The notes: a model not told the origin generated them from the letters alone. A stretch of DNA of 64,000 nt from Gemmatimonadota bacterium (GCA_038128265.1 JAYPJE010000013.1:9077-73076), one strand, 5' to 3'. Shown: positions 30,288-59,594, numbered from the stretch's first letter. Numbers and translations are program-made.

Positions 30288-30339
30288 CCACCGCGCAGAT
30301 TTAAATATCAGAACTCGACCGCAAAGGGAGGGATTGAGT

Positions 30340-37981: not shown

Positions 37982-38081
37982 GCCCACTAGTTTTGTCTGC
38001 AACGTACATGCATGTCCATATTCCACTGGGATTGTTCGTTTTTCCCACCGCTTCTGACCAGACCTTGCAAGGAGGTTACTA

Positions 38082-38990
38082 ATGAAGAAGCTGATTGCAC
38101 TGGCGGCCGTCGCAGCGTTGTCTGCAGCGCCCGCTTCGGCGCACGTCCCCGAGGGCCTCATCTTTGGCGCTTGGAACTGGCCGACGTCGCACCTGCCCAA
38201 CTTGGATGGTGATATTTCCGAATGGGATGTCTTGCCGGCCGAACTGTGGCTCGAGATCAATGGCGATCTGTTCGCCGTTGATGATGGTAGCGGTAAGCCC
38301 GTAGATACTTCTGACTTGTGGTTCCGCTTTGCGATGGGCTGGAACGACGAGTTGGATCGCATTTACTACGTGTACGATCGCTATGACAACGTGTGGGACC
38401 GCGACGCGGGTGGTGTTGGCTGCTGCGGTCAGGACGATAGCATCGAGGTCGGTCTCGACGCCGACCACAGCGGTGACTGGTTCTGGAGCCAGGAAGGCCA
38501 GACCGAAGAAGAAGCGCTGCGCACGCGCGGTCGTCAGGCCCAGACGGGTCACTACCGCTGGCCGGCTCTCGAGCCCTTTGGCTGGTACTGGTTCTGGATG
38601 ACCACCGCTGACTGGCACGACGAAGAGCCCCATTCCTGCTGCACCGATTCGTTCACGCTGGACGGTGTGCACGGCTCTGAGGCCACGATTCAGGCCGAGT
38701 GGTACACGGTCGCTTGGGACGATTTTAACTTTGCCGGTCCGGATCAGAGCGTCCGCCACGACTTTGTCGAAGGTGAGATCATTGGTGCCGGTCTGCAGGT
38801 CGTCGATAACGACAACGGCACCGAAGACGATCCCAAGACCTGGAAGTGGGTTTTGGGTGGCCAGTCCGATATCTTCGGCAATGCCAGCTCTTTCAGCGAT
38901 TTCATCCTCCTCCCGGTCGACTTGGCTAACCTGCCGACCGCCGTCGAGAATGATAGCTGGGGTCACATCAAGGCTTCGGTTGCCCGCTAG
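38082..38990 (+). CDS. Exported CBM9/DOMON-like protein with N-terminal His and C-terminal TAVExxSWGxIK tail
   Basis: AGGAGG RBS, signal APASA|H, PNLDGDISEWD, DSIEVGLDAD, GEIIGAGLQVVDND, ends PTAVENDSWGHIKASVAR. Confidence 0.78.
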   Translation: MKKLIALAAVAALSAAPASAHVPEGLIFGAWNWPTSHLPNLDGDISEWDVLPAELWLEINGDLFAVDDGSGKPVDTSDLWFRFAMGWNDELDRIYYVYDRYDNVWDRDAGGVGCCGQDDSIEVGLDADHSGDWFWSQEGQTEEEALRTRGRQAQTGHYRWPALEPFGWYWFWMTTADWHDEEPHSCCTDSFTLDGVHGSEATIQAEWYTVAWDDFNFAGPDQSVRHDFVEGEIIGAGLQVVDNDNGTEDDPKTWKWVLGGQSDIFGNASSFSDFILLPVDLANLPTAVENDSWGHIKASVAR

Positions 38991-39026
38991 TCTGATGTAG
39001 CGCCTATAAGTTGGTCTTAGACCACA

Positions 39027-39068
39027 TAAAAAAGAGGGGAGATCGCGGTTGATCTCCCCTCTTTTTTA
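39027..39068. terminator. Bidirectional intrinsic terminator
   Basis: TAAAAAAGAGGGGAGATC-gcggtt-GATCTCCCCTCTTTTTTA, a perfect 18-bp inverted repeat with A6/T6 tracts. Confidence 0.9.
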
Positions 39069-39132
39069 ATATATAATGTTATAGCGAATTCCGGGCTGTT
39101 ACCCTCACGCTGCTGAGCGAGGTAATCGAATC

Positions 39133-41046
39133 ATGAGAATATGGGGATGGTTTGCCATTTTCTGTCTCGCCGTCGCGCCGTCTGCCAGCGCTGTGACGAT
39201 TTATCGAATCGGCGGTGAAGATATGCCGCAGCCCGAATTGGACGTACCCTACGATTTTGTGCAGATGTCCTGGTCGGAAGTCGATCCCGCTCGCCACGGC
39301 AGTGCCTACCTTTTGCAGATTGCTCCCGATTTTATCGCGCCGCAGCAGCTCGATCCGACGGTGAACCTAACGCCGCAGCTCGAGGCGCTGGGCGGCCGCA
39401 TTCTCTCATTGACTTGGACGGGATGGGGACCGGCCTTTGGCCGCGATCTCAAGATGTTTGACGGCGATTCTGCGACGGCTTTTCTCGGAGACGGCGATTG
39501 GGGGGGGGACTACGGGGTCATACGCCAGAAGTCGATGATCTTTGATCTGGGCGGCGTCTTCCTGTTGGATCGCATTGAACTCTCGCCGCGCGATCGCTTT
39601 CTCAACGATCGCTTTATAGAGACGCTGACCATTGGTTTAAACGATGGGGATCCGCTTAAAGACGGCACGCGTGAGTTTGTATCCGGGCATAGAGACCAGT
39701 ACTTTGATTTTGATATCGCTCACCAGCTGTTTGAGAATACGGAGTCGCAGCTAAACCTGAAGCTCCCGCAGGTGCCCGTGCGCATGCTGCTATTCGAAGC
39801 GCCGGAAAATGCGCGCGGGATATGGGAGGTCGCCGAGCTCGAGCTGTACGGTATCGGTTTTGCGCCGCAGTCGAGCTATATATCCAACATAATTGATCTC
39901 GGTGCCCCGGCCAGTCTCGGCGAGGTGGTGTGGTCCGGTCGTCAGGACACCGCTTCGGAGGTCGATATTGCCATGCGCGCCGGCGACGACGAAGATCCCA
40001 ACAACTACTGGCGTTTCACCTTCAGGGGCGACGAGCGCGCGCGCTTTGATGTCAACGGGGTGCCGCTGGTGCTGAAGAGCTATAACAAGCTTGATTCGGG
40101 TGAAAAAGCCGGAGTCACTCACGATACGGAGAATTGGGATTTTTGGTCGACTCCCTACGAATTCGGTGCGCTGAGCGGCGATCTCGTAAGCAATAAACCG
40201 CGTCGTTTTGTGCAGTTCAAAGCCGATTTTACCTCGGGCTTGGCCACGGGAGGCCAGCTCGACTATCTGCAGTTCAAGGTTTCTATTCCGCCGGTGGCCA
40301 ACGAGGTGATGGCCGAGATCACGCCCAATCAGGTGCCTGCGGGAACGGTCGCTCCCTTCACGTACAAGATAAAACCCCGCCTTAAGGCCGATGATCTTGG
40401 CTTCGACAGTATTTCCATCGATACGCCGGCTCGACCCGCTAGCATCGATGCGGTGCGCGTTGGCGGCATCGATGCGCGCTTCGAGGTGGTTGCTCTGGGC
40501 GACGGTGGGTTTACCATCCGCATTCCCCGCATAGACACGGATCAGACCGGAGAGTTGATAGAAGTCGACTTTCGGGCCGAGGTGTTTAAATTCGGTACCG
40601 TGTTTTCGGGGCGCGTCTTTGACAGCGAGCGCCCGGAGGAAGTTCACCAGACGATGACGCCGGGCGATGCGGACCCCCTAGTCGACGCCGACGCGGTGCG
40701 GGTCGATTTACAGGGTCTATCGCAGCAGACCATTCAGGCCATGAGTCTGTCGTCGCCGGTGCTAACGCCCAACGGCGATGGCATTAACGACGAAGTCGAA
40801 ATAGAGTACGATTTGCTCAATTTGATAGGCACGGTGCCGGCGGTGATAGAAATCTACGACCTGGCGGGCCGGCGCCTGGCTGCCGTGTCCTCGGGAACGG
40901 CTGAGAGCGGCCGGTTTTCCATCGCATGGGATGGACGCGGTACCAGTGGAGCGGTGCTGCCGCCCGGCACGTATATCGTCCGCCTCGCAGTGGAAACAGA
41001 CGGCGGCACGGCCGTTCGCGAGCGCATTGTTTCGGTGGCGTATTGA
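39133..41046 (+). CDS. Exported discoidin-like protein with FlgD-Ig/CHU_C-like C-terminal domain (class B, copy 1)
   Basis: Signal ASA|V, MFDGDSAT..IFDLGG..WEVAELELYG, WDFWSTPY, LTPNGDGIND..WDGR..LPPGTY..VSVAY. Confidence 0.82.
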   Translation: MRIWGWFAIFCLAVAPSASAVTIYRIGGEDMPQPELDVPYDFVQMSWSEVDPARHGSAYLLQIAPDFIAPQQLDPTVNLTPQLEALGGRILSLTWTGWGPAFGRDLKMFDGDSATAFLGDGDWGGDYGVIRQKSMIFDLGGVFLLDRIELSPRDRFLNDRFIETLTIGLNDGDPLKDGTREFVSGHRDQYFDFDIAHQLFENTESQLNLKLPQVPVRMLLFEAPENARGIWEVAELELYGIGFAPQSSYISNIIDLGAPASLGEVVWSGRQDTASEVDIAMRAGDDEDPNNYWRFTFRGDERARFDVNGVPLVLKSYNKLDSGEKAGVTHDTENWDFWSTPYEFGALSGDLVSNKPRRFVQFKADFTSGLATGGQLDYLQFKVSIPPVANEVMAEITPNQVPAGTVAPFTYKIKPRLKADDLGFDSISIDTPARPASIDAVRVGGIDARFEVVALGDGGFTIRIPRIDTDQTGELIEVDFRAEVFKFGTVFSGRVFDSERPEEVHQTMTPGDADPLVDADAVRVDLQGLSQQTIQAMSLSSPVLTPNGDGINDEVEIEYDLLNLIGTVPAVIEIYDLAGRRLAAVSSGTAESGRFSIAWDGRGTSGAVLPPGTYIVRLAVETDGGTAVRERIVSVAY

Positions 41047-41084
41047 CCGATTGTGTAAACGGGTATTCCCGGATGGAGAACGCT

Positions 41085-43004
41085 ATGAATCGCTTCGGAA
41101 TGTTGGGCTGTGCACTCTTTGCGTTGGCGTTGGGATGGAGTGCGGATGCGGGTGCGCTCACGATCTTTCGCATCGGCGGTGAAAATCTACCGCGGCCTGA
41201 GGTTGGCGGTGACTTCGAGTTTGTTCAGCTCAGCTGGGGCGAGGCAGAAGAGGCGCGTCACGGCAGCTTGGAGTTGCTAGAAGTCAGTCCGGACTACATC
41301 AAACCGCGCGAACTCGATCCCAGCGTGAATCTCACACCCGCGCTCGAAAGCAACGGGGGGCAGATCTTGGCTTTGGGTTGGACGGGGTGGGAGCGCCGAC
41401 TCGAGGAGGATCTGGTCTTTTTTGACGAGGATCCCAGTACCGCCTACTTAGGCGATGGGCACTTTGCCGCCCATGCGCCGCCGCAGAAGCACTTGATCTT
41501 TGATTTCGGCGGACGCTTTCTAATTCAGCGCATTCGCTTTTTTCCGCGCGAAAAGCACGAGCACGATCGCTTCATACAAAAGTTTGTCATTGGCATTAGC
41601 GACGGGGACCCGCTCAAGGACGGTATGCGTGACCGCGACTTTGGCACCCGCGGTCACTTCGTCAACTTTGACGTCGCGCACGAAATAACCGAGAACACAG
41701 TGTCGGATATTACGCTGGAAATGCCGCCGGTGCCCATCAAGCAGATTCTGTTTCAGGGTTTTGAAAACACGCGTGGCATCTGGGAAGTCGCGGAGTTTCA
41801 GATTTTTGGTATCGGCTATGCTCCATTTGCCCACTACGTGTCCAACGTCATCGACCTCGGAAAACCGGCTAGCTTAGGTCAGTTGACCTGGCTGGGGCGC
41901 CAGGATCAGGATGCAAAAATCGATATAGCCATGCGCGCCGGTGATGATGACGATCCCAACAACTACTGGCGCTTCACATTCAGAGGCGATGAGCGCACCC
42001 GTTTCGCCACCAGCGGTCGGCCGCTCAAGCTGGCTGACTACAAGAAACTTGAATCGGGTGAGAAGGCGGGCATTACCCACGATACGGAGAATTGGGATTT
42101 TTGGTCGACGCCCTACGACTTCGAAGCAGACGGTGGCAATTTGGTCGGCAACAAACCGCATCAATTTGTGCAGTTTAAAGTCGACTTTCTCTCTGGGTTA
42201 GAGGCTAGCGGACAGCTCGACTACCTGCAGTTTTCGGTGGCGATACCGCCCATTGCCAGCGAAGCGCTGGCCGAAATCGAGCCAAACCGAGCGCCAGCGG
42301 GCGAGGTGACGTCGTTTACATACAAGATCAAGCCGAACCTCGATAGCGGCGATTTGGGATTCGATAGCATATCAATTGACACGCCAGCCCGTGCCGTTGG
42401 CGTCGATGCCGTGCGCATTGGCGGCGTCGAAGAGGAATTTGAACTCGTCGATTTAGATGATACTGGCTTTACGGTTCGCGTTCCGCCGATCAGCATCCAG
42501 CAGACGGAAGAGCTGATCGAAGTCGACTTTCGCGCCGAGGTCTTTAAGTTTGGCACCGTGTTTTCAGGTAGGGTGTTTAACAGCGAAATGGTCGATGAGG
42601 TATATCAAACGCTGACGCCGGGCAATGCCGACGACCTGTTTGACGGCGACGTGCTGCGCGTGGACTTAGCGGGACTTGAATCAAATACGATCCAAGCGAT
42701 GCACCTGTCTTCGCCGGTTTTGACTCCGAATAACGACGGCGTCAACGATCGCGTCACGATCGAGTACGATTTGCTCAACTTGGCGGGGTCTGTGCCGGCG
42801 ACCGTCGATATTTACTCGCTTTCGGGGCAGCGCCTCAGCTCGGTGCCGGTGGCCAGCGTTGCCAGCGGTCGATTTTCAACCCAATGGGACGGCCGCGATG
42901 AAGGGGGCAAGATCTTGCCCCCGGGTATGTACATTCTGCGTTTGGAAGTAGCTGCTGATCAGGGATCGGATGCCGTCGAACGCATCGTTTCGCTGGCCTA
43001 TTGA
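41085..43004 (+). CDS. Exported discoidin-like protein with FlgD-Ig/CHU_C-like C-terminal domain (class B, copy 2)
   Basis: ATG 41085 after GGAG. Collinear paralogue of 39133 (identical PNNYWRFTFRGDER and HDTENWDFWSTPY). Ends VSLAY. Confidence 0.82.
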   Translation: MNRFGMLGCALFALALGWSADAGALTIFRIGGENLPRPEVGGDFEFVQLSWGEAEEARHGSLELLEVSPDYIKPRELDPSVNLTPALESNGGQILALGWTGWERRLEEDLVFFDEDPSTAYLGDGHFAAHAPPQKHLIFDFGGRFLIQRIRFFPREKHEHDRFIQKFVIGISDGDPLKDGMRDRDFGTRGHFVNFDVAHEITENTVSDITLEMPPVPIKQILFQGFENTRGIWEVAEFQIFGIGYAPFAHYVSNVIDLGKPASLGQLTWLGRQDQDAKIDIAMRAGDDDDPNNYWRFTFRGDERTRFATSGRPLKLADYKKLESGEKAGITHDTENWDFWSTPYDFEADGGNLVGNKPHQFVQFKVDFLSGLEASGQLDYLQFSVAIPPIASEALAEIEPNRAPAGEVTSFTYKIKPNLDSGDLGFDSISIDTPARAVGVDAVRIGGVEEEFELVDLDDTGFTVRVPPISIQQTEELIEVDFRAEVFKFGTVFSGRVFNSEMVDEVYQTLTPGNADDLFDGDVLRVDLAGLESNTIQAMHLSSPVLTPNNDGVNDRVTIEYDLLNLAGSVPATVDIYSLSGQRLSSVPVASVASGRFSTQWDGRDEGGKILPPGMYILRLEVAADQGSDAVERIVSLAY

Positions 43005-43010
43005 TACGCC

Positions 43011-45611
43011 ATGAGACGGTCGCCCCGCAACGTTATACCGTGGCTGTGCTGCATTGCGCTGCTATCGATGAGTGCAGCCGAGGGGCAAGGCCATCGCATT
43101 GCGGCCAATCAGGTCGTTGTAGAGGGCAGGCATTGGAATAACTGGACCTTTCCCGCCGGCACGCTGGACATATCCAATCGGGGCGAGGTGATGCCCCGCG
43201 TTCTGCACAAAAATATCAACGCCTCGTTTGATATCCTCGATTATTTGCGCCTCCATCCGCCGCCGGCACTCGGCAGCAAAGCGCCCGAAGACATCCAATT
43301 GATCGATGCAATACAGGCGGGGTCCAATCGCGAAGGCGTAGTGCATATTCTCGACGGTGATATGTCGACCTATTGGGAGCCCGACCTGCTGCAGCCAGAC
43401 GTCGACCTCGAGTCGCAGTGGTGGTTCACTATTGATCTCGGGCGCTTTGTCTTTATTGAAAAACTGGTGCTGAAATTTGTCGACGAGGAATTGGGCGATC
43501 CGTTCCTGCTGTTTGACGTTCTCGTCTCCAACGGTCTGAATCCAGTCCGCGTTCCGGGCTCAAAATCTCCTGAGTATAAGACCGTCTTACGCAACCTACA
43601 GCCGAATAAGAGCCAACGCGTATTTGAGATTGATTTCAGCAAGGTGCCCGAAGCGCAGAGCGAAGGGGTGCGCTTTGTGCAGGTAGTCGTCAACGGCAGC
43701 GACTTGCAGCAGGGCCGTGAGGTCGATCGCGAGGTCTACGACGCGCTTGATGCGGATAGTCGGGGGGCGGTCCAGTACAACAAGAAAATGGCTGACGGGC
43801 GCGAGGTAGTAATTAAACAGAGCGTTTACGAGCAGCTCGAAGGGGAGCGACAGGGTTCCATACGCTACTTCATGCGCGAGCGTCCCCGCTTGGCGGAGCT
43901 CGAAGTATGGGCCACGGGCGATGAAATTGTCGGCGGTACGGTCGAACGCGGTGGCTTTATCACATCGACTCAGCAGATCAATACGGCGACCGTCATCGAC
44001 GGCGATATCCAGAGCTTTGGCACGGTGACGACCACCATCGCGGAGATTACCGATCCCAATGAATTGAATTTGGATATGTTTTTTGACCTGGGTTCGTTCT
44101 ATTGGATCGACACGCACCGTATCGTCTACAACCCGGGCAATGTGCACGCGCGCAGTTTCTTTGATTACCAACTAGACTTTTCCGACGGATCGCGTGCACC
44201 GGATGGCGAGCTGAGCTGGTTTACTGCGCTCTTCCGCCGGCAGGAGGCTACGCTCAAGGCCGTTATTGAAGGCAATCGCTTTGCACCGGTAAAAGCCCGT
44301 TTTTTTCGCCTGCAGGCCAAGGCGCGCAATATGCGGGGCAATGCGCTGGTACCCGTCGCGGAAATGCAGCTTTACGGCGAGGGATTTCAGCCGCGCGTCG
44401 AGTTGGAGTCGGATCTGATCCGCCTTGGCGGGAGCCGCAACCTGCTGTCGATCCGCTGGGATGCCGATACGCCACCGGGCACGAGCGTGCAGATTCAGAC
44501 GCGCACCGGTAATGAACTTGGCGAGGTGCTGCACTACTTCAAGAAAGACGGCACGGAGGTTACGGAGTCGCAGTATGGCAAGCTGCTATCGCTATTCAAG
44601 GGAGAAGTTGTTCCCGAGGAAGTGCCGGGCAACGATTGGAGCGATTGGAGCGAGCCGTATACGCTCGCGTCGGGTAGCCCGATTACCTCGCCGTCGCCGC
44701 GCGAATATCTCAAGGTGCGGGCGACGCTGGTCTCTGACGATCCAGCCGCCGCCGCCGCGCTGCGCTCTATCCGCCTCGATTTCGTCGATCCGGTAGCGCA
44801 GGGCTTGGTGGGTGAGGTCGTTCCGTTTCAGGTCGATTCGCTGGGCGTAGAGCAGCCCTTCTCGCTGTATATCCGCCCCGACTTTGTGCGCAGCGATAGC
44901 GGCTTTGACGAACTACTGCTGGTGGCGCCGTCGGATATGGCACTCGACTTTGTTGGTTTTTACGCGGGCAAAGAGGATGATTTCCTAGGTGATGGGCGCG
45001 ATATAAACGGCCTAGCGGTGGCCGATGTAGAATTGGTGACTAGCGGAGGAGACAGCCTGCAGGTGGCTTTCCCCCCGATTACCCCGGGAGACGATGTCGA
45101 TGTGTTGCGCTTGGATTTCCGCACCGCCCTTTTCTCGACGGGAGCGGTCTTGCGACCCGCGCTGCAGCAGCGTGGCAGTGCCAACAGCGCATGGCAGCGC
45201 GTCGATTCGGGTAATGCCATCGCCCTGGGTCAGGGCAATACGACCACGTTGGTAGGCGCTGTCGGTAGCAATCAGCTGATTCGCGACGTGTCGGTGAACC
45301 CCAGGGTCTTTTCTCCGAACGGCGATGGGATCAACGACGAGACGGCATTTGAATTTACCGTTGTTCGCGTGGGCGATAGCAGCCCGGCTGAGGTGATTGT
45401 CTACGATCTGAGCGGTCGTCAGGTGCGGCGCTTGGTCGAGCAGCGCTTGGTGAGCACGGGCGCGCGTGCGCTGCACTGGGATGGTCGCAGCGATGCGGGC
45501 GATATGGTAATGCCCGGCGTGTACTACGCCCGTCTACGCGTCGCCACAGAAACCGCCGGTGCGGGAATTGACAATGCCGAGGCTCTGCGGCCCATTGTCG
45601 TCGTTTACTGA
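43011..45611 (+). CDS. Exported protein with two discoidin-like domains and FlgD-Ig/CHU_C-like C-terminal domain (class C, copy 1)
   Basis: Signal AEG|Q, LDGDMSTYW..WWFTIDLG..RFVQV..LAELEVW, second domain IDGD..FFDLG..ARFFR..AEMQLYG, FSPNGDGIND..WDGR..VVVY. Confidence 0.82.
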   Translation: MRRSPRNVIPWLCCIALLSMSAAEGQGHRIAANQVVVEGRHWNNWTFPAGTLDISNRGEVMPRVLHKNINASFDILDYLRLHPPPALGSKAPEDIQLIDAIQAGSNREGVVHILDGDMSTYWEPDLLQPDVDLESQWWFTIDLGRFVFIEKLVLKFVDEELGDPFLLFDVLVSNGLNPVRVPGSKSPEYKTVLRNLQPNKSQRVFEIDFSKVPEAQSEGVRFVQVVVNGSDLQQGREVDREVYDALDADSRGAVQYNKKMADGREVVIKQSVYEQLEGERQGSIRYFMRERPRLAELEVWATGDEIVGGTVERGGFITSTQQINTATVIDGDIQSFGTVTTTIAEITDPNELNLDMFFDLGSFYWIDTHRIVYNPGNVHARSFFDYQLDFSDGSRAPDGELSWFTALFRRQEATLKAVIEGNRFAPVKARFFRLQAKARNMRGNALVPVAEMQLYGEGFQPRVELESDLIRLGGSRNLLSIRWDADTPPGTSVQIQTRTGNELGEVLHYFKKDGTEVTESQYGKLLSLFKGEVVPEEVPGNDWSDWSEPYTLASGSPITSPSPREYLKVRATLVSDDPAAAAALRSIRLDFVDPVAQGLVGEVVPFQVDSLGVEQPFSLYIRPDFVRSDSGFDELLLVAPSDMALDFVGFYAGKEDDFLGDGRDINGLAVADVELVTSGGDSLQVAFPPITPGDDVDVLRLDFRTALFSTGAVLRPALQQRGSANSAWQRVDSGNAIALGQGNTTTLVGAVGSNQLIRDVSVNPRVFSPNGDGINDETAFEFTVVRVGDSSPAEVIVYDLSGRQVRRLVEQRLVSTGARALHWDGRSDAGDMVMPGVYYARLRVATETAGAGIDNAEALRPIVVVY

Positions 45612-45646
45612 TTGGTCAGGTTAATAGAGGACCGGAGTTAATTCTT

Positions 45647-48250
45647 ATGTCATTGAGCGCTCTTTATTCAAACAGCAACCGCTTGATACCGGCGTTGTGT
45701 ATGGCCATATGGGCGATGGGTTCCGCCGATTCGGCGCGGGCTCAGGGGTACCGGTTGAGTGCGAGTCAGGTTATTGTTGAGACCCAGCGCCACTGGGAAA
45801 ACTGGGTATTTGCCCAGGGCACGCTGCAAATTGATGGAGGACAGGTGCAGCCGTCGGCCATGCGGCGCAATACCAACGCCGTATTTGATATCGTCGATTT
45901 TCTGCGGCTGAATACCCCGTCTGAAATCAAGAAAGACGCCGAAGACATCGAGCTGATTGATGCCGTTAAAGCGGGTTCGAATCGCGCCGGTGTGGTCAAT
46001 ATTATGGACGGTGATATGTCCACCTACTGGCAGCCCGATCGCGCTGAAGAAGGGAGCGACCTAGCGACGCAATGGTGGTTTGTCATCGATTTGGGCCGCT
46101 TTGTCTTTGCCAAGAAGCTTGTGCTAAAGTTCGTCGACGAAGAACTGGGCGACCCCTTCCTGCTCTTCGATGTATTGGTTTCCGATGGACTGGCACCGCC
46201 GCGCGTTCCGGGTTCAAAAGTGCCGCGCTACCAAACGGTGCTCCGGACGCTGCAAGAGAACAAAGACCAGCGCGTATTTGAAATTGACTTAGATGGGCTG
46301 AGTGACGAAGCCGAGAGCGAGGGCATTCGATATGTGCAAGTCGTCGTAAACGGCACGGATGCGGGCCGCGGACGGGAAGTCACCAAGGAAGCATACGATG
46401 GATTGCTTGCGGCCGACCGAGGTGATATCGAATACAATAAAAAGTTGATTAACGGGGGCGAAGTGCCGGTTCGGCAGGATGTTTTTGAACAGCTAGAGCT
46501 CGAGCGCCAAGGCGCCGTGCGCTACTTTCGTCAGGAGCGCCCGCGGTTGGCCGAGCTCGAAGTTTGGGGTTTGGGCGACGAAATTCTCAGCGGAACCGTT
46601 TCGCGCGGCGGCTTTATTTTTGCAACCGAGCCCAACGTGGCGCTCAGTTCATTTGTCGACGGCGACCGCGGCACGATCTCCCAGATGGTTTGGGACGCGC
46701 AGCCCGGCGCTACGCAGATCTTTGATCGCGAGCTCTTTTTCGACCTCGGTTCGTTTTATTGGATCGACACACACCGCATGGCCTACGGCGGCCTATTTCG
46801 CCGCTTTGGCGACTATCAACTACAGTTCTCCGACGGATCGCTCGCCCCGGATGGGACGTTGCAGTGGTGGACGTCTTTCGACCGTTCGCAGGCCGGGCGC
46901 GTGCGCGAAAACTTTGAAGGAAACGATTTTGATCCGATTAAAGCGCGTTTCTTTCGCATGTTTTGGAAGATAAAAGAGCGCGGTAGCAATCGCGTTGAAC
47001 TGGCAGAGATTCAGCTCTACGGCCAAGGCGTGCAGCCGCGCGTCGAATTGGAATCGGATTTGATCCGCCTGGGGGGCAGCCGCAATCTCCTGTCCATAGA
47101 GTGGGATGCCGATACGCCGCCGGGCACGAGCGTGCAGATTCAAACGCGCACGGGTAACGAACTGGGCGAAGTGCTCCACTACTTTAAAAAAGATGGCACC
47201 GAAGTGACCGAGGCGCAGTATGGAAAGCTGCTGTCGCTGTTTAGGGGTGATATTGTGCCGGAGGAAGTGCCGGGCAACGACTGGAGCGATTGGAGTGAGC
47301 CGTACGCGCTCTCGTCGGGCAGTCCAATTACGTCGCCGTCGCCGCGCGAATACCTTAAAGTGCGGGCAACGCTGGTGTCCGACGATCCAAACGTCGCGGC
47401 CACGCTGCGCTCTATTCGACTCAACTTTGTCGATCCGGTAGCACAGGGCCTAGTGGGTGAGTTGGTGCCGTTTCAGGTCGATTCGCTGGGCGTAGAACGC
47501 CCGTTTTCTCTGTATATCCGACCGGACTTTGTGCGCAACGACAGCGGCTTTGATGAACTGCTACTCGTCGCACCTTCCGACATGAGTCTGGACTTTACGG
47601 GGCTCTTTGCTGGAGCAGAGGCCGACTTTGTAGCGGGGAGCGACCTTGAAGCGATGGTTCCCGAAGGAGTGGACGTAGCCGCTAGTGGCGGCGACAGCCT
47701 GCGCGTCGCCTTTGCCCCTATTGGCCCCAACGACAATATTGACCTCTTGCGGCTCGACTTTCGCACGGCGCTTTTCTCGACGGGGGCCGTATTGAAACCT
47801 CTGCTTCAGCAGCGTGGAGCAACAAACGCTTGGCAGCGAGTGGACGCGGGTAACGCCGTCTCACTGGGAGAGGGCAATACGACGACGCTGGTCGGCGCCG
47901 TCGGTCGCAAAGAACTTATTCGCCATGCCGAAGTAGTGCCGCGCGTATTTTCACCTAATGGCGACGGCGTCAACGACGAAGCGGCCTTCGAGTTTACCGT
48001 TATTCGGGTGAGTGATAGCAGCCCAGCCGAAGTGACGGTATACGATCTGAGCGGCCGTCGGGTGCGCCATCTGGTCGAGCAGCGAGCCGTTAGCACCGGT
48101 CCGCGCTCCCTGCGTTGGGATGGTCGCGATGACGCGGGTCAACTCGTGGCGCCGGGCGTGTACTATGCGCGGTTACGTGTTGCCACGGAAACGTCGGGCG
48201 CCGGCATTGAAAGCGCCGAAGCACTGCGCGCCGTATCGGTGGCATATTAA
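45647..48250 (+). CDS. Class C paralogue, copy 2
   Basis: Collinear with 43011. Near-identical ESDLIRLGGSRNLLSI..GTSVQIQTRTGNELGE..SPSPREYLKVRATLVSDDP block. Ends VSVAY. Confidence 0.82.
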   Translation: MSLSALYSNSNRLIPALCMAIWAMGSADSARAQGYRLSASQVIVETQRHWENWVFAQGTLQIDGGQVQPSAMRRNTNAVFDIVDFLRLNTPSEIKKDAEDIELIDAVKAGSNRAGVVNIMDGDMSTYWQPDRAEEGSDLATQWWFVIDLGRFVFAKKLVLKFVDEELGDPFLLFDVLVSDGLAPPRVPGSKVPRYQTVLRTLQENKDQRVFEIDLDGLSDEAESEGIRYVQVVVNGTDAGRGREVTKEAYDGLLAADRGDIEYNKKLINGGEVPVRQDVFEQLELERQGAVRYFRQERPRLAELEVWGLGDEILSGTVSRGGFIFATEPNVALSSFVDGDRGTISQMVWDAQPGATQIFDRELFFDLGSFYWIDTHRMAYGGLFRRFGDYQLQFSDGSLAPDGTLQWWTSFDRSQAGRVRENFEGNDFDPIKARFFRMFWKIKERGSNRVELAEIQLYGQGVQPRVELESDLIRLGGSRNLLSIEWDADTPPGTSVQIQTRTGNELGEVLHYFKKDGTEVTEAQYGKLLSLFRGDIVPEEVPGNDWSDWSEPYALSSGSPITSPSPREYLKVRATLVSDDPNVAATLRSIRLNFVDPVAQGLVGELVPFQVDSLGVERPFSLYIRPDFVRNDSGFDELLLVAPSDMSLDFTGLFAGAEADFVAGSDLEAMVPEGVDVAASGGDSLRVAFAPIGPNDNIDLLRLDFRTALFSTGAVLKPLLQQRGATNAWQRVDAGNAVSLGEGNTTTLVGAVGRKELIRHAEVVPRVFSPNGDGVNDEAAFEFTVIRVSDSSPAEVTVYDLSGRRVRHLVEQRAVSTGPRSLRWDGRDDAGQLVAPGVYYARLRVATETSGAGIESAEALRAVSVAY

Positions 48251-48280
48251 ACGGTTTGGATACCCATGGGAGAAACGCAG

Positions 48281-50872
48281 ATGATCGGTAGGTGCCGGTG
48301 GCTGTGCGGTGTGCTGGTGGCCGTTTTCGCCTCGATGCTATTGGTTGGTGAACTGCGGGCACAGGGCCACAGGGTTAGTGCCAATCAGGTTGTTATCAAC
48401 GCGCAGAATCACTGGGAAAACTGGGTGTTTCCGCAGGGCACGCTCAGTGTCGTCGATGGCACCGTGCGGCCAAAGAGCATGCAGCGGAATACCAATGCGG
48501 TTGTCGATATCGTCGACTTTCTGCGTCTCAATACGCCCGATCACATCAAGAAAGACCCCGAAGATATCGGTCTGGTCGACGCAGTCAAAGCCGGCTCAAA
48601 TCCCGCCGATGCATTTAAGGCGATCGACGGCGATCCCACCACCTATTGGGAGCCAGCGCCGGTGCCCGCAGGCATTGACCTGCCTGCGCAGTGGTGGTAC
48701 AACCTCGACTTGGGCCGCTTTGTCTTCGCAAAGAAAATCGTCCTAAAATTTGTCGATGAAGACCTGGGCGACCCATTCTTGCTCTTTGACGTGCTTGTTT
48801 CCGACGGACTCAAACCCAAGCTCGCCCCCCTGTCGACGACGCCAAACTATTCTACGGTCATGCGTCTGTTACAGGAAAACAAGAGCCAGCGCGTCTTTGA
48901 AATCGACCTGCAAAATGCCGACAAAGAGACGCGCAGTCAGGGGCTGCGGTTTATTCAGATCGTGGTCAATGGAACCGACGGTGCGCGCGGCCGGCAGGTC
49001 ACAGAGGCCGAATACGACGAACTGCCGGCCGCCGAGCGCGGTGCAGTTGAATACTACAAATATCTGCTCGACGGCGGTCAGCTACAGGTAGACCAGGATG
49101 TCTACGAAAAGCTGAGCCCGGAAAAGCGAGCCGATATCCGCCACTTTCGTCGCGAGCGACCGCGCCTGGCCGAAATTGAGGTGTGGGGTGAAGGAGACGA
49201 GATTCTGAGTGGCACCGTTTCGCGCGGCGGCTTTATCTCCACAACGGAGCCGGGCGTGGCGTTGGGCCCCTTTATCGATGGCCGGCGAGAGAGCTCTTCC
49301 ATCGTCGTTTGGGGCGTGGGTGGTTGGACCGGGGCTACCACCGACATCAACAATCGCGAACTGTTTTTCGACCTAGGTACATTCTACTGGGTCGATACGC
49401 ATCTATTGGCCTACGGCGGCCGCAGCTTTGGGGACTACCGCATCGAAGTGTCGGACGGCAGCCTGGCCCCAGACGGCAGTTTGGAGTGGAATCGCGTGCT
49501 GAATCGCGATCAGGGCGGCGTGTACCAGCGCCCGTTTGAAGGCAACCGATTTGATCCCGTACAGGCGCGCTTTTTTCGCATGCAGTGGACGGTTGCCGCC
49601 TTTGGTGCCAGCGCTATACTGGCCGAAGTGCAGCTCTACGGCGAGGGATTTTTGCCGCGTTTGTCGCTTGAATCCGATTTGATTCGCCTCGGGGGAAGTC
49701 GAAACCTGCTCTCCATCGAATGGGACGCCGATACGCCGCCGGGGACGAGTGTGCAGATTCAGACGCGCACGGGTAATGAATTGGGCGAAATCTTGCACTA
49801 CTTCAAAAAGGACGGCACCGAAGTAACCGAGGCGCAATATGGCAAGCTGCTGTCGCTGTTCAAGGGAGATATTATTCCCGAAGAAGTGCCGGGCAACGAT
49901 TGGAGTGATTGGAGCGAACCCTATACTATTCCTTCCGGTAGTGTGATTACTTCGCCGTCGCCGCGCGAATATCTCAAGGTGCGCGCGACCTTGGTTTCGG
50001 ACGATCCGTCGGCTGCGGCTGCGCTGCGCTCTATTCGACTCAACTTCGTCGATCCGGTAGCGCAGGGACTGGTTGGAGAGGTCGTGCCCTTTCAGGTCGA
50101 TTCGCTGGGCATCGAGCGCCCTTTCTCCCTGTACATCCGACCGGATTTTTTGCGCAATGACAGCGGTTTTGACCAACTGCTTCTGGTTGCTCCTTCCGAT
50201 ATGGAATTGGCGTTTGCCGGCCTCTATGCCGGTTCGGAAGACGACTTTATTGCCGGGGGGGATATGGAACGCATGCGCGTGGAGGATGCGCTGGTGGCTG
50301 AAACCAATGCGGACAGTCTGCAGCTTCGCTTTCCGCTTGTTGGGCCCAATGGCGACGCGGAGCTACTGCGTCTCGATTTTCGCACGGCGCTGTTTTCTAC
50401 GGGTGCGGTGCTGCGGGCTTCACTGCAAAATGGATCCGGCGGATCGGCTGCCTGGCAGCGCGTAGACGCGGGTAATGCCGTTGCGCTGGGCGCGGGTAAT
50501 ACGACGACGCTGGTCGGCGCGGTCGGTCGCAACGAGCTACTCTATGACGTGCGGGTTGAGCCGCGTGCATTCTCACCCAACGGCGACGGGATTAATGACG
50601 ACACGGTCTTCGAGTTTACCGTTGTGCGCGTGGGCGATAGCAGTCCGGCAGAAGTAATTATCTACGATCTGAGCGGTCGTTCGGTGCGGCGCTTAGTTGA
50701 GCAGCGCGCGGTTAGCACGGGACCTCGATCTCTGCGCTGGGACGGGCGCGATGACGCCGGTCACGTCGTCATGCCGGGTATCTATTACGCGCGCCTGCGC
50801 GTTGCGACGGAAACGGCCGGTGCCGATATAGACAATGCCGAGGTGCTGCGTACGATATCGGTGGCCTACTGA
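48281..50872 (+). CDS. Class C paralogue, copy 3
   Basis: ATG 48281 after GGGAGA, signal LRA|Q, collinear with 43011 and 45647. Ends ISVAY. Confidence 0.82.
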   Translation: MIGRCRWLCGVLVAVFASMLLVGELRAQGHRVSANQVVINAQNHWENWVFPQGTLSVVDGTVRPKSMQRNTNAVVDIVDFLRLNTPDHIKKDPEDIGLVDAVKAGSNPADAFKAIDGDPTTYWEPAPVPAGIDLPAQWWYNLDLGRFVFAKKIVLKFVDEDLGDPFLLFDVLVSDGLKPKLAPLSTTPNYSTVMRLLQENKSQRVFEIDLQNADKETRSQGLRFIQIVVNGTDGARGRQVTEAEYDELPAAERGAVEYYKYLLDGGQLQVDQDVYEKLSPEKRADIRHFRRERPRLAEIEVWGEGDEILSGTVSRGGFISTTEPGVALGPFIDGRRESSSIVVWGVGGWTGATTDINNRELFFDLGTFYWVDTHLLAYGGRSFGDYRIEVSDGSLAPDGSLEWNRVLNRDQGGVYQRPFEGNRFDPVQARFFRMQWTVAAFGASAILAEVQLYGEGFLPRLSLESDLIRLGGSRNLLSIEWDADTPPGTSVQIQTRTGNELGEILHYFKKDGTEVTEAQYGKLLSLFKGDIIPEEVPGNDWSDWSEPYTIPSGSVITSPSPREYLKVRATLVSDDPSAAAALRSIRLNFVDPVAQGLVGEVVPFQVDSLGIERPFSLYIRPDFLRNDSGFDQLLLVAPSDMELAFAGLYAGSEDDFIAGGDMERMRVEDALVAETNADSLQLRFPLVGPNGDAELLRLDFRTALFSTGAVLRASLQNGSGGSAAWQRVDAGNAVALGAGNTTTLVGAVGRNELLYDVRVEPRAFSPNGDGINDDTVFEFTVVRVGDSSPAEVIIYDLSGRSVRRLVEQRAVSTGPRSLRWDGRDDAGHVVMPGIYYARLRVATETAGADIDNAEVLRTISVAY

Positions 50873-51070
50873 TAACGCTCTCCCCACACAATGCGTGCGA
50901 ACCCATATCGGCTGCCATCGGTGCAGTGTGCCGGCTTGCAGGTGCCAAGCCGGCGGCGCCAAATCTATTGCTCAGAAATTTGTTTTTGCGTTTGTGCGTG
51001 AGCGACCGCGTTGCTGGGCGTGTGTGCCAATTCAGGTGGGCCTGAGCCGCGTACTATGAGGGGAATGCGT

Positions 51071-52738
51071 ATGTTCGCTGCCATATATGCCGTGCGCCGG
51101 GGGTGGATCCTTCCCCTTACAGTCTGTATGGTTGCGGCCGTAGAGGGCGATCCGTTGCGGCTGCCTGGTGAGGGGGTAGGGGGGGGGCAATCGGAGGAGA
51201 TGGTGCAGCATCCAGTGCGTCCACAGCACCAGAAGGTTCAATCCGTTACGCCGGCTGACGAAGCGATACCGGGGCGGGCCGAAGCGATACTCTATTGTCA
51301 GACGTGTCATATTTTCGCCGAGCCCGATCTACTCGATCGCGCGACGTTGCACAACTTCGTGCTGCCTTTTCTCTCGGAGCGCCTGGGAATTCCTCCTGGC
51401 ACTACGTCGTTACCTGCCAATCCCATCGGTCGGCAGAAAGATCCCAAAGCGCTTGAGATCGTCAACAGGGCAGGCATCTACCCGGCGTACCCACTCGTGC
51501 CGCCGGATGCGTGGGAGAAGATCGTAGACTACTATTTGCAGGCTGCTCCCGAGGAGCCTTTGCCGCGCACGGAAGAACCGTCGATTCGCGCGGAATTGCC
51601 GCAGTTTGAGGTTTTCAAGCCGCGCTATCGTACGCCGTATCCCTTCACCACGTTAGTCGAGATCGATACGCTGCGAGGATGGATCTATGCGGGTGATTCG
51701 GCCGATAATTCACTGGTCATACTCGATGGTCAGGGACGGGAATTGCAAAAGATTCCTTCGATGCCCTCGCCGGTGGCCATCGAAAATCGAGCCGGAGCGG
51801 TGTGGGTGGCCTCCATTGGTTCGGTTTTTCCCTCCGACAATCCACGGGGCAAACTCGTCGCGTTCGAAAAAGATGGGCAGGGGCTGCTGAATATTCCTCC
51901 ACGCGATGTATTAACCGACCTGGCGCGGCCGACCTTTGCAACCTACGGCGACCTGAACGGCGACGGCAGGGAAGACATTGTCATGTCAAACTTTGGCTAT
52001 CGAGTGGGCCACCTTTCGTGGTTTGAAAACGCGGGGGAGGGGCGCTATAGAGAGCATATACTCAATGGCGAACCCGGTGCGCTTAGCAGTGTGCTGCACG
52101 ATTTTGATGGAAACGGCCTGCTCGATATTGCCGTGTTAATGGGGCAGGCGCGCGAAGGCGTGTTTATTTATTACAACGAAGGCGATGGGCACTTTACCGA
52201 GTCGTATGAGATTCAGTGGCCACCGTCGTACGGAGCGGCCCATATGACGCTGGTCGATTTTGACGGCGACGGTGCCATGGACATCCTAACGGCCAACGGC
52301 GACAATGCCGACTACACGCCGTTTGCCAAGCGCTATCACGGGGTGCGGCTGTATATGAACGACGGCACGAACCGCTTTACCGAGGTGCTCTTCTATCCGC
52401 AGCACGGATCCTATAAGGCGCTGCCCGTCGATTTCGATCAGGATGGCGATTTGGACATTGCCGCCATTTCGTTTTTTCCGGACTACGCTTCGGCACCGCA
52501 AGAGTCGTTTGTCTATTTGCAAAATAGGGGCAATATGCAGTTTGTCGCTCACACCTTTGCCGAGGCGCAGGACGCCCGCTGGTTGACGATGGATGCCGGA
52601 GACGTCGATTTGGACGGAGATGCGGATATTGTGTTGGGCGCTTTTGTGCGCGGAGGAAGCAATGTGCCGAAAGAGGTCGAGCAGCGCTGGCAGCGGGAGG
52701 CGACATCCGTGCTTATTTTGCGCAACAAACTGTTCTGA
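51071..52738 (+). CDS. FG-GAP/VCBS propeller protein with N-terminal c-type heme motif
   Basis: YCQTCHIFAEPDLLD (CxxCH), WEKIVDYY, then DLNGDGREDI, DFDGNGLLDI, DFDGDGAMDI, DFDQDGDLDI, DVDLDGDADI. Start chosen after GAGGGG. Confidence 0.82.
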   Translation: MFAAIYAVRRGWILPLTVCMVAAVEGDPLRLPGEGVGGGQSEEMVQHPVRPQHQKVQSVTPADEAIPGRAEAILYCQTCHIFAEPDLLDRATLHNFVLPFLSERLGIPPGTTSLPANPIGRQKDPKALEIVNRAGIYPAYPLVPPDAWEKIVDYYLQAAPEEPLPRTEEPSIRAELPQFEVFKPRYRTPYPFTTLVEIDTLRGWIYAGDSADNSLVILDGQGRELQKIPSMPSPVAIENRAGAVWVASIGSVFPSDNPRGKLVAFEKDGQGLLNIPPRDVLTDLARPTFATYGDLNGDGREDIVMSNFGYRVGHLSWFENAGEGRYREHILNGEPGALSSVLHDFDGNGLLDIAVLMGQAREGVFIYYNEGDGHFTESYEIQWPPSYGAAHMTLVDFDGDGAMDILTANGDNADYTPFAKRYHGVRLYMNDGTNRFTEVLFYPQHGSYKALPVDFDQDGDLDIAAISFFPDYASAPQESFVYLQNRGNMQFVAHTFAEAQDARWLTMDAGDVDLDGDADIVLGAFVRGGSNVPKEVEQRWQREATSVLILRNKLF

Positions 52739-52759
52739 GAGGAAGCGAAGAGGTACGCG

Positions 52760-53626
52760 ATGAAATATAGGCGATTTGGGCGGACAAATTTAGAGGTGAG
52801 CGCGGTAAGTTTGGGCGGAGCGTATATTGGCGGCCGCGATCCAGAGCGCGCGCAGGAGAATGCGGTAGAAATTGTATCGAGGGCGTGGGAGGCGGGGTGC
52901 AACTACATCGACACCGCGCCTCTATACGGCGACAGCGAACAGCTATTAGGACAAGCGCTTGCGCGGGTTGGACAGCCATTTTCGATAGCGACGAAGGTGG
53001 GCTTCAAGCCGGAGGGTTTCGACTACAAGCGCGATTCCGTAGTGGCAAGCATAGAGCGCAGCCTGGGGCTGCTCGGCGTCGAAAAGGTTGCGGTGGCGCA
53101 AATACACGAGGTAAATCTGGCTGGCTGGGAGCGCATTATGGAGCCAGGTGGCACGCTTGAGGGCCTGCGCGAAGCCCAGCGAAGAGGGCTATGTGACTTT
53201 GTCGGCATTACTGCGCGAGCCATCTCGCTGCTGGCCGAACTGGCGCAGACCGGTGAATTCGACACGGTGCTGTGCTATCACGATTACCACCCCTGCAAGA
53301 AGTTGGCTGCTGAGGAGGTCGTGCCGGCAGCGGCCGCTAACGATATGGGTATAGTAATTGCCACGCCGCTGGCCGGTGGAATTTACGTTGATAACGACGA
53401 GCAGGCAGCGGCCGTTGAGCAGTGGTTTGAAGAGGCGGACAGACCGCGCGTGTGGGGCATAATAGAAGAAATGAAACGGGCGCAGTCGACCCTGCCACAG
53501 AGCGCGTTTCGCTGGATCCTGGGCGACGGTCGCGTGTCGACGGTGTCGAGCGGTCCGTCAAACGTCGTCGAGTGGGACGAGGTCGTTGCGGCGGCGGATA
53601 TGGAGCCGCTCGCCCTCACCACGTGA
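52760..53626 (+). CDS. Aldo/keto reductase
   Basis: MKYRRFGRTNLEVSAVSLGG, IDTAPLYG, ATKVG, QIHE. Confidence 0.92.
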   Translation: MKYRRFGRTNLEVSAVSLGGAYIGGRDPERAQENAVEIVSRAWEAGCNYIDTAPLYGDSEQLLGQALARVGQPFSIATKVGFKPEGFDYKRDSVVASIERSLGLLGVEKVAVAQIHEVNLAGWERIMEPGGTLEGLREAQRRGLCDFVGITARAISLLAELAQTGEFDTVLCYHDYHPCKKLAAEEVVPAAAANDMGIVIATPLAGGIYVDNDEQAAAVEQWFEEADRPRVWGIIEEMKRAQSTLPQSAFRWILGDGRVSTVSSGPSNVVEWDEVVAAADMEPLALTT

Positions 53627-58559: not shown

Positions 58560-59594
58560 ATGAGGGCAAGCGATCGCCAGCGCGTGGGTGCGCAGGGATT
58601 GGAAGTGACGCGCCTTGGACTGGGCGGCACGGCATTTGGCAATATGTATGCCCGGCTAGACGAGGCGGCCGCAGAAGAAATTGTCGCAGCGGCCTATGCC
58701 GAGGGTATTTGCTACTGCGACACGGCGCCGCTCTACGGTTATGGCATGAGCGAGACGCGCTTGGGACAGGGTTTGAAAAGCGTGCCGCGCGACCAGATGG
58801 TTCTCTCTTCCAAGGTGGGCTATATGCTGGTGCCGCGGCCCGAGGGGCAGGAGGACCACACCCCCTTTGTCGACATTCCGCCGCTGGCCAGTGTGTTCGA
58901 CTATTCGCGCGATGCAACGCTGCGCTCAATCGAGGGCAGCCTGGAGCGACTGCAGACAGATCGGCTGGATATCGTGCTGATTCACGATCCCGACGAATCG
59001 CGCAGCAACGATCCGGGTTGGCAGCCCGGCGATCGCGGCCATTTTGACGAGGTGATGGAGGGCGCCTACCCGGCGCTGTGCGAACTGCGCTCAGCGGGAG
59101 TTATCGGAGCGATTGGGTTGGGTATGAACCAGTGGCAAATGCTGGCCGACTTTGCGCGCGCCGGCGATTTCGACTGCTTCTTGCTGGCCGGGCGCTATAC
59201 GCTGCTAGAGCAGGAGTCGCTGCGCGAACTGCTGCCGCTGTGCCTGCAAAAAGACGTCCGCATTATTATTGGCGGTCCCTACAACTCGGGCATTTTGGCG
59301 ACGGGCGCGACCGAGGGCGCCATGTATAATTACGCACCGGCCGACGAGGCGGTGCTGAGGCGCGTGCGGCAGATTGAGGCCGTTTGTGCGCGCCACGAAG
59401 TGCCGCTGAGGGCGGCGGCGCTGCAGTTTCCCTTTGGGCACGCGGCGGTGGCCACGACCATTCCCGGTGCGCGTTCGGCAGAGGAGATCCGCGACAACGT
59501 GCGTTTGATCGAACATCCAATCCCCAACGACTTTTGGGCCGAGCTCAAGGCCGAGAATCTAGTCGCGTCGGAAGCGCCAACGCCTAGCGGTTAG
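58560..59594 (+). CDS. Aldo/keto reductase, D-threo-aldose/L-fucose 1-dehydrogenase-like subfamily
   Basis: DTAPLYGYGMSE.RLG, SSKVG, FDYSRD..LRSIE.SL.RL, LIHDPD, LLAGRYTLLEQ, GGPYNSGILATG. Confidence 0.88.
   Translation: MRASDRQRVGAQGLEVTRLGLGGTAFGNMYARLDEAAAEEIVAAAYAEGICYCDTAPLYGYGMSETRLGQGLKSVPRDQMVLSSKVGYMLVPRPEGQEDHTPFVDIPPLASVFDYSRDATLRSIEGSLERLQTDRLDIVLIHDPDESRSNDPGWQPGDRGHFDEVMEGAYPALCELRSAGVIGAIGLGMNQWQMLADFARAGDFDCFLLAGRYTLLEQESLRELLPLCLQKDVRIIIGGPYNSGILATGATEGAMYNYAPADEAVLRRVRQIEAVCARHEVPLRAAALQFPFGHAAVATTIPGARSAEEIRDNVRLIEHPIPNDFWAELKAENLVASEAPTPSG

Follow-up and report, generated by a model that had tools for sequence, protein, structure and literature searches.

The window examined here, a stretch of 64,000 nucleotides (JAYPJE010000013.1:9077-73076) from the metagenome-assembled genome (MAG) GCA_038128265.1, which is labelled Gemmatimonadota bacterium, encodes on its plus strand three head-to-tail genes, referred to below as A (43011-45611), B (45647-48250) and C (48266-50872). 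They are separated by spacers of 35 nt (A-B) and 15 nt (B-C). Their open reading frames (ORFs) of 866, 867 and 868 aa share one architecture, with a signal peptide, two CBM32-like domains, a β-rich core and a C-terminal domain (CTD) of the FlgD_Ig/CHU_C type, and the three proteins are 64-70% identical in pairwise alignments. We found that four loops (V1-V4) of the second CBM32-like domain differ strongly between the three copies and are retained in orthologues of each copy. We consider it probable that A, B and C arose by an ancient tandem triplication, followed by subfunctionalisation of the ligand loops and then by purifying selection, and that together they form a fixed lectin-type repertoire with three members at the cell surface. 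According to this hypothesis, the triplicated gene would have encoded a protein that a Latescibacterota bacterium secretes to its cell surface, each copy carrying a Sec signal peptide, two discoidin/CBM32 domains, a core of unknown family, and a CTD for export and attachment by the T9SS, or type IX secretion system. The loops V1-V4 would lie at the pole of domain 2 that forms the carbohydrate-binding site in solved CBM32 modules. After the duplications the loops would have diverged between the copies almost to randomness, and the loops of each copy would later have been kept by purifying selection, leaving three stable and different ligand specificities, most likely for glycans, on a common body. 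Such a repertoire is most likely fixed in the germline, rather than being a system that generates variation.

A first-pass annotation of the sequence had described a constant framework in domain 2 interrupted by four variable segments, three of which also differ in length, and followed by about 170 almost invariant residues; each of these features was recovered in our analysis. The framework motifs RGGFI, DG, FFDLG.FYW.DTH, SDGS.APDG.L.W, EGN.F.P..ARFFR and AE.QLYG were present at about 43917-44380 in A, 46574-47023 in B and 49193-49642 in C, with the variable segments between them. In B, these segments correspond to residues 340-362 (V1; 46664-46732), 380-386 (V2; 46784-46804), 408-423 (V3; 46868-46915) and 438-452 (V4; 46958-47002). 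The segment lengths in A, B and C, respectively, were 24, 23 and 26 residues for V1, 10, 7 and 5 for V2, and 16, 15 and 14 for V4, while V3 had 16 residues in all three copies. Identity over V1-V4 between paralogs was 15-31%, as compared with 65-74% for the interleaved framework (A-B, 9/61 vs 56/81, Fisher p 5e-11; A-C, 10/59 vs 53/81, p 8e-9; B-C, 18/58 vs 61/82, p 4e-7). In contrast, the block corresponding to B 466-645 was 90-92% identical in pairwise comparisons and invariant in all three proteins at 157 of 180 positions. The proportion of synonymous differences (pS) in this block was 0.37-0.68, that of nonsynonymous differences (pN) was 0.00-0.12 and DNA identity was 81-84%. Its constancy therefore reflects purifying selection on old copies rather than recent gene conversion, which the pS values led us to reject as the origin of the invariant block in this triad.

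The same pattern was seen in the wider family, where divergence was again far from uniform along the protein. In a full-length alignment of 50 sequences, the ten-residue blocks of highest entropy in the whole protein were B 441-450, 341-350, 351-360 and 411-420. The regional values were 3.3 bits for residues 341-360 in V1, 3.0 bits for 381-390 in V2, 3.1 bits for 411-420 in V3 and 3.6 bits for 441-450 in V4, the last being the maximum of the protein. Insertions fell in V2, V3 and V4, and gaps fell at 351-360. In a separate 50-row alignment of domain 2, the largest insertions were those in V3, and most of the gaps were in V1-V4, although the loop preceding V1 also had some smaller ones.

Domain 2 adopts the discoidin/CBM32 fold, as the first-pass annotation had supposed. 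An AlphaFold2 (AF2) model of B (mb809eacea7be), built on the family alignment, had a predicted local distance difference test score (pLDDT) of 92.8 and a predicted TM score (pTM) of 0.84. Domain 2 of this model (residues 311-460; 46577-47026), to which the corresponding domains of A (43920-44381) and C (49196-49645) were assigned by alignment, matched CBM32-6 of CpGH89 (4a42_B) in VIA-align with a Z of 15.0 and a root-mean-square deviation (rmsd) of 2.3 Å, over 125 of 126 residues. Over 20 additional chains from CBM32s or lectins matched at Z 12.9-14.1, and both the best single-domain matches and the majority of matches were bacterial carbohydrate-binding modules (4a42, 4zz5, 4a44, 2v72, 7blg). 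At the sequence level, a profile of 76 family members matched solved CBM32s over residues 308-450 with an E value of 1.6e-5, including the NagH and NagJ modules, the lectin domain of a Micromonospora sialidase, the CpGH31 CBM32 and nanoCLAMPs. The same profile matched other CBM32s over 96-191, and FlgD (3osv) and the PorU C-terminus (6za2) over the last 100 residues. A profile of 50 domain-2 sequences matched the NagJ/GH84C CBM32 (2j1a/2j7m) with an E value of 2.4e-4, and the sequence-profile matches of domain 2 were to CBM32s only. Domain 1 of B (residues ~75-310; 45869-46576) has a discoidin/CBM32 fold with an inserted sub-region and a weak match to Pfam F5_F8_type_C; in VIA it matched IFT25 (2yc4_A) at Z 14.2, 4zxe_A at 13.6 (chitosan-binding modules fell in the range of 13.6-14.2) and 4lpl at 13.0. 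The two domains together (model residues 71-465) superposed on neuropilin b1b2 and factor V at Z 13.7-14.2, with 261-272 aligned residues and an rmsd of 5.4-6.2 Å; the Foldseek TMt for tandem-discoidin proteins was 0.46-0.47 and the sequence identity 12-15%.

The positions of the loops in the model suggest that they share one apex of the domain. According to DSSP, domain 2 of B runs from strand 345-348 through coil 349-359 (V1), hairpin 360-380, coil 381-389 (V2), strand 390-395, the conserved loop 396-407 (SDGS.APDG), strand 408-413, coil 414-422 (V3), hairpin 423-441 and coil 442-448 (V4) to strand 449-459, from which the chain exits to the core. Each V loop is two strands away from the next, and V4 is followed by a single strand; strand parity thus assigns the four loops to the pole opposite to that of the N- and C-termini, through which the chain enters and leaves. 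The coils 349-359, 381-389, 414-422 and 442-448 are the only long ones on one side of the model, and the opposite pole is made of conserved motifs, comprising the hairpins and the 396-407 loop. The pLDDT dipped to 64, 83, 74 and 76 at V1, V2, V3 and V4, respectively, as compared with 96-98 in the adjacent strand blocks. In a hidden Markov model alignment to 2j1a, an H-x2-W segment fell in V1, R-x4-N in V2 and a Phe-bearing segment in V4, and their spacing suggests that these hold the canonical motif residues of 2j1a, so that V1, V2 and V4 appear to align with sugar-residue loops of CBM32. CBM32 sugar sites have been described as being built by apical loops of variable length (PMC5291390).

A search for related loci located the relatives of this family in Candidatus Latescibacterota MAGs, a few of which were labelled Gemmatimonadota. 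Orthologous triads or close family members from MAG records labelled Gemmatimonadota or Gemmatimonadetes (L011, L013, L026, L032, L038 and others) nested among Latescibacterota in the tree, and these labels look inconsistent. In three MAGs, L011, L012 and L013, the A-B-C triad was present with its order kept and its lengths similar. The orthologues in these MAGs were 76-87% identical for A, 74-93% for B and 75-92% for C; across the four triads, identity was thus 74-93% between orthologues as compared with 57-69% between paralogs. In a tree of 67 rows, the triads formed a clade of 12 rows with a support of 100, in which the A, B and C subclades each repeated the species order, indicating that the triplication predates the four genomes.

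The loops followed this orthology. Identity over V1-V4 was 59-97% between orthologues, in contrast to the low values between paralogs. In seven of nine orthologue comparisons the loops were 77-97% identical, at synonymous divergences (dS) of about 0.5 to >1.8. The ratio of nonsynonymous to synonymous divergence (dN/dS) in the loops was 0.018-0.167 in the six of nine pairs with an estimable dS (about 0.5-1.8). V1 of A was identical in L012 and near-identical in L013, while the whole proteins were 85% and 76% identical. Columns fixed within each orthologue group yet different between groups were enriched in V1-V4 (17/79, vs 36/769 elsewhere; odds ratio 5.6, p 1e-6). Positive selection was not detected in dN/dS values computed by region, as all regions gave values below 1 both in the orthologue pairs and in younger tandem pairs.

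We found no sign of diversification machinery in the genome. No match to the RVT_1 reverse transcriptase was detected in this MAG, which is 84% complete, no template repeat was found, and no extra repeats were present in 38000-53000 of the window; the reading as a diversity-generating retroelement (DGR) was rejected on the lack of an RVT_1 match and of a template repeat. When the DNA of domain 2 from each of the three genes was compared with the genome by blastn, only the paralogs were recovered, at 69-80% identity, with no partial or silent copies, and silent cassettes were likewise rejected. In the domain-2 segments of A, B and C, metagenome contigs from four studies of different habitats departed from the window at 0-8 positions in stretches of 324-731 nt; these were Logan contigs, which hide rare variants and differences in depth, so that microdiversity could remain, and uncovered bins in runs X6 and X7 carry no meaning.

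Tandem arrays of this family arose independently in other lineages, namely in L014, in L009/29/31/32/33, in L010/15 and in L040, as judged from the tree. V1-V4 were the least conserved region in all eight of the other arrays examined, save for one pair of the present genome that was 100% identical throughout. The two members of this pair are adjacent, at C9:24027-26618 and C9:26670-29186, and their identity in every aligned region could result from a tandem duplication that is very recent or from an artefact of the assembly. Several single pairs showed a mosaic of dS along their length. In the L010 pair (5107/7920), dS rose from 0.09 (CTD) and 0.21 (core) to 0.41 (domain 1) and 0.75 (domain-2 framework), and in the L033 and L031 pairs domain 1 had a dS of 0.16-0.26. 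The general pattern in the pairs of L010 (5107/7920), L015 (5095/7602), L033 and L031 was a CTD near zero, a low core and a high domain 2. Because dS forms a mosaic along single tandem pairs, partial gene conversion is indicated in some lineages, where it helps to hold the body constant while sparing the loop-bearing domain. Of 61 genomes sampled from the phylum, with the present MAG (G000) among them, 20 had a match at E<=1e-30, in a patchy distribution by family, and 316 cluster representatives matched at the same threshold in a library of 1.84 billion proteins.

Several observations weigh against a repertoire of fixed, lectin-type proteins exported by T9SS. Columns varying within orthologue groups were also enriched in V1-V4 (60/79, vs 391/769 elsewhere; odds ratio 3.1). 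The loops of B and its L013 orthologue were 59% identical, as compared with 74% for the whole proteins, and the C orthologues of L012 and L013 bear insertions in V2 and V3. Because the loops are the fastest-changing part within orthologue groups and those of B and L013_B differ to this extent, it is possible that their specificity is still changing to some degree. In the younger tandem pairs, loop dN/dS was 0.26-0.54 as compared with 0.04-0.25 for the framework, a two- to sixfold difference, although still below 1; the loops are evolvable, yet the regional dN/dS never reaches 1. One metagenome contig of run X5 tracked gene C as far as V2 (49422) and then diverged with an insertion resembling that of L012_C, indicating that a close relative with a different V2 co-occurs in the same sample. 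Between the paralogs, synonymous sites were saturated, so that selection on the branch of loop divergence was not measurable. With regard to the fold, Pfam F5_F8_type_C scored 20.5-27.3 bits on the two N-terminal regions, under the cut-off of 28.2, and F5_F8_type_C_2 scored 27.3 bits on domain 2 of B against a cut-off of 27.8. The shared pole of V1-V4 is suggested by strand parity and homology rather than by measured distances. The canonical CBM32 galactose motif consists of H, Y, R, N and F and is common to 2J1E (PMC3313936). By eye, it is not kept in A, B and C: His, Asn and Phe were missing at the aligned positions in the profile consensus and in the three proteins, with apparently just the Trp retained in B and C. 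The discoidin fold itself binds lipids, peptides or proteins in neuropilin, factor V and IFT25, which are families matched by the model. As for export, the CTDs did not reach the NCBIfam models of T9SS CTDs (TIGR04183, type A, 16.2 vs 23; TIGR04131, type B, 17.9 vs 35), and GldM_1st was absent from the search of the genome, at its 84% completeness.

The alternative that comes closest to our interpretation retains the same architecture and history and assumes that the loops bind a non-glycan target, such as a protein partner (e.g., a distinct barrel), a mineral or a cell surface, in which case A, B and C would be adhesins or assembly adaptors. The ligands of neuropilin b1b2, factor Va and IFT25, the lack of the full galactose motif, the two giant barrels encoded at the locus and the occurrence of similar modules on at least 12 contigs (see below) are all consistent with this. 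However, the structural matches are mostly, and the best single-domain ones entirely, to bacterial carbohydrate-binding modules, the profile matches are confined to CBM32, and the window encodes a sulfatase and other extracellular-type proteins, and we therefore regard a non-glycan target as unlikely. A quite improbable explanation is that the loops have simply drifted as unconstrained surface segments since an old duplication, the differences between copies being meaningless. It would account for the near equality of pN (0.51-0.64) and pS (0.62-0.70) in the paralog loops, and for the fact that pLDDT within the domain is lowest in the loops, loops being a usual place for indels, but it conflicts with the conservation and low dN/dS of the loops between orthologues, which signify purifying selection, and with the excess of group-specific columns in them.

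Homogenisation of the constant parts by gene conversion, such that only the loops would show the true age of the duplication, seems very improbable for this triad. The mosaic dS of pairs in L010, L033 and L031 shows a pattern of this kind in other lineages, and in the window the paralog pS was 0.71-0.75 in the N-terminal part and somewhat less, 0.58-0.64, in the core. Against it stand the pS of the most conserved block, the alternation of framework and loops within domain 2 at intervals of 10-20 codons, a finer scale than conversion tracts would give, and the agreement of the A, B and C clades with the species tree, which implies no homogenisation since the four genomes split. We give the least credence to ongoing diversifying selection or programmed hypervariation, whether by an arms race, a DGR or cassettes. 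Across the family, the loops vary more than any other part of the protein; they change within orthologue groups more often than the rest, evolve faster than the framework in younger tandem pairs, and are the point at which the X5 contig departs from gene C. The searches for a reverse transcriptase, a template repeat and a second domain-2 copy other than the paralogs were, however, negative within the limits given above, regional dN/dS stayed below 1 throughout, V1 of A is kept in L012 and L013, and the contigs of the four studies are close to the window at the level at which contigs report. Accordingly, neither the first-pass description of the loops as antibody-like and hypervariable nor its suggestion of phage or host escape is supported, given the ancient origin of the triad and its co-speciation in four genomes, the similarity and low dN/dS of the loops within orthologue groups, the negative searches and the near-identity of the contigs of four studies. 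On the other hand, its notion of a diversified lectin-type repertoire on a constant stalk remains a fair description, as the core and CTD recur with different heads in about 58 paralogs. An antibody-like, naturally hypervariable lectin would be remarkable; the evidence favours ordinary duplicated heads of CBM32 type.

The body that carries these heads is largely uncharacterised. The β-rich core of B (residues 461-760; 47027-47926) had no Pfam match even at E<=5, and the Atlas yielded only uncharacterised Latescibacterota clusters, at 0.88. The core is conserved, with a dN/dS of about 0.1. A Foldseek search with the whole 867-aa model of B returned no solved protein that covers the chain, giving only domain-level or generic multi-β-sandwich matches. 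Within the otherwise conserved core, a second variable and indel-bearing patch was noticed at B 661-680 (47627-47686), with a paralog pN of 0.31-0.46 and gaps and insertions in the family alignment. The C-terminal β-sandwich of B (47927-48247) is of the FlgD_Ig/CHU_C type and is likely a T9SS sorting or anchor signal. CHU_C scored 26, 29.5 and 25.1 bits and FlgD_ig 24, 33.2 and 29.9 bits on A, B and C, respectively, against a cut-off of 27 for both, the domain of B thus exceeding both cut-offs. T9SS export is plausible because the genome encodes the PorU sortase (656.9 bits against a cut-off of 420) and SprA (592.8 bits against a cut-off of 200), and the CTD most likely directs export and surface attachment by this system.

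The genes A, B and C belong to a much larger superfamily in the same organism. A phmmer search of the 4.29-Mb MAG recovered about 58 ORFs with the core and CTD of B, of which about 27 also carry discoidin heads. Two of these superfamily genes (637 aa and about 650-690 aa; 39133-43004, plus strand) combine this core and CTD with heads that are shorter or of another kind (phmmer, Pfam CTD) and lie 7 nt upstream of A, with which they are probably co-transcribed. In the phmmer search of B against the ORFs of its own genome, the 637-aa protein matched B 309-867 and a 692-aa ORF matched B 447-856. Further upstream, two paralogous proteins of ~960-980 aa (30235-33126 and 33126-36071, plus strand) are predicted to be giant outer-membrane β-barrels; neither belongs to a Pfam family. 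An AF2 model of the first (30235-33126), from an alignment of 22 paralogs, had a pLDDT of 72.6 and long antiparallel strands, and all 50 listed Foldseek matches were outer-membrane barrels (MtrB, SlpA, LptD, TonB-dependent transporters and FimD), with low TM scores. The barrels have an Asp-rich, calcium-type loop region of low pLDDT at residues about 575-660, and at least 22 paralogs in the genome.

This arrangement is not limited to the window. On at least 12 contigs, ORFs of this superfamily are interspersed with genes for proteins of ~900 aa that belong to no known family. The recurrent module consists of a B-type protein (~800 aa), one or two barrels of ~900 aa and core-CTD proteins of ~650 aa, sometimes joined by TPR proteins and by a ~300-aa protein that matches no family; in G000 it was seen on contigs C6, C9, C11, C16, C18, C23, C24, C28, C35, C38, C40, C66, C88 and C98. 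The window also encodes five FG-GAP/ASPIC-UnbV proteins, the sulfatase mentioned above and three DUF6785/DUF6784 proteins (7070-13426, 56608-58548 and 59591-61507), one of which is fused, in a polypeptide of 2118 aa, with permease domains of the MacB/FtsX type.

These observations raise the speculative idea, to which we assign a rather small chance, that the family forms an undescribed modular surface apparatus of Latescibacterota. In such an apparatus, the ~58 paralogs with one core, one T9SS-type anchor and interchangeable heads, made up of two CBM32 domains, of one or of other modules, and interleaved with barrels of ~900 aa that would form a new family, might dock their heads on the barrels through the core, V1-V4 setting the polymer that is captured for uptake. 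If so, it would be a functional analogue of Sus-like glycan capture made from entirely different parts. Among the papers listed in full-text literature searches, none dealt with this family, and a search aimed at Latescibacter listed none that mentions the name. Our analysis flags a very large, uncharacterised family of surface proteins tied to giant outer-membrane barrels, which probably shapes the contact of Latescibacterota with polymers or particles. The triad offers three ready constructs with which to find what this uncultured and widespread marine and estuarine phylum binds.

Among known systems, the T9SS-anchored proteins of Bacteroidota resemble A, B and C in having a Sec signal and a C-terminal β-sandwich, in the presence of PorU and SprA in the genome, and in the interleaving of their genes with outer-membrane barrels. 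To our knowledge, the arrangement of T9SS cargo and barrel genes is unstudied in Latescibacterota. A report on type B CTDs describes cargo encoded beside a dedicated outer-membrane partner of the PorP/SprF type (PMC12618676). The CTDs described here differ in falling below the NCBIfam cut-offs, and the neighbouring barrels of about 900 aa are far larger than PorP/SprF. Variable proteins of DGRs and other programmed hypervariation systems likewise place a small number of variable segments, which bind the ligand, on a scaffold that is constant, but they have a C-type lectin or Ig fold rather than CBM32. In addition, the loops of A, B and C are stable between species and were accompanied by neither a reverse transcriptase nor a template repeat in our searches of the 84%-complete genome. 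Tandem discoidin domains bind through apical 'spike' loops, and the two consecutive domains of neuropilin b1b2 and of factor V/VIII C1-C2 superpose on residues 71-465 of the model of B; these proteins are, however, eukaryotic and have peptide or lipid ligands, so that the resemblance is one of fold and arrangement only.

The closest likeness in fold is to the CBM32s of Clostridium perfringens (NagH, NagJ/GH84C, CpGH31 and CpGH89), which share the β-sandwich at Z 13-15 and rmsd 2.3-2.9 Å. In these modules, too, apical loops that are variable in sequence and length build the ligand site on a conserved core (PMC5291390, PMC3313936). Several divergent copies are likewise found in one organism. The clostridial modules are strung on one polypeptide beside a glycoside hydrolase, whereas A, B and C are separate tandem genes without a catalytic domain, with an extra discoidin domain, an uncharacterised core of 300 aa and a T9SS-type CTD, and without the galactose motif. 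NanoCLAMPs, which are engineered on the NagH CBM32-2 scaffold, were represented among the domain-2 profile matches by chains 7rga and 7rg7. In contrast to these laboratory libraries with three randomised loops, the window shows no variation-generating mechanism, and its three natural variants are fixed and diverge in four loops. A, B and C may provide a clean natural case of specificity loops swapped on a fixed CBM32 scaffold.

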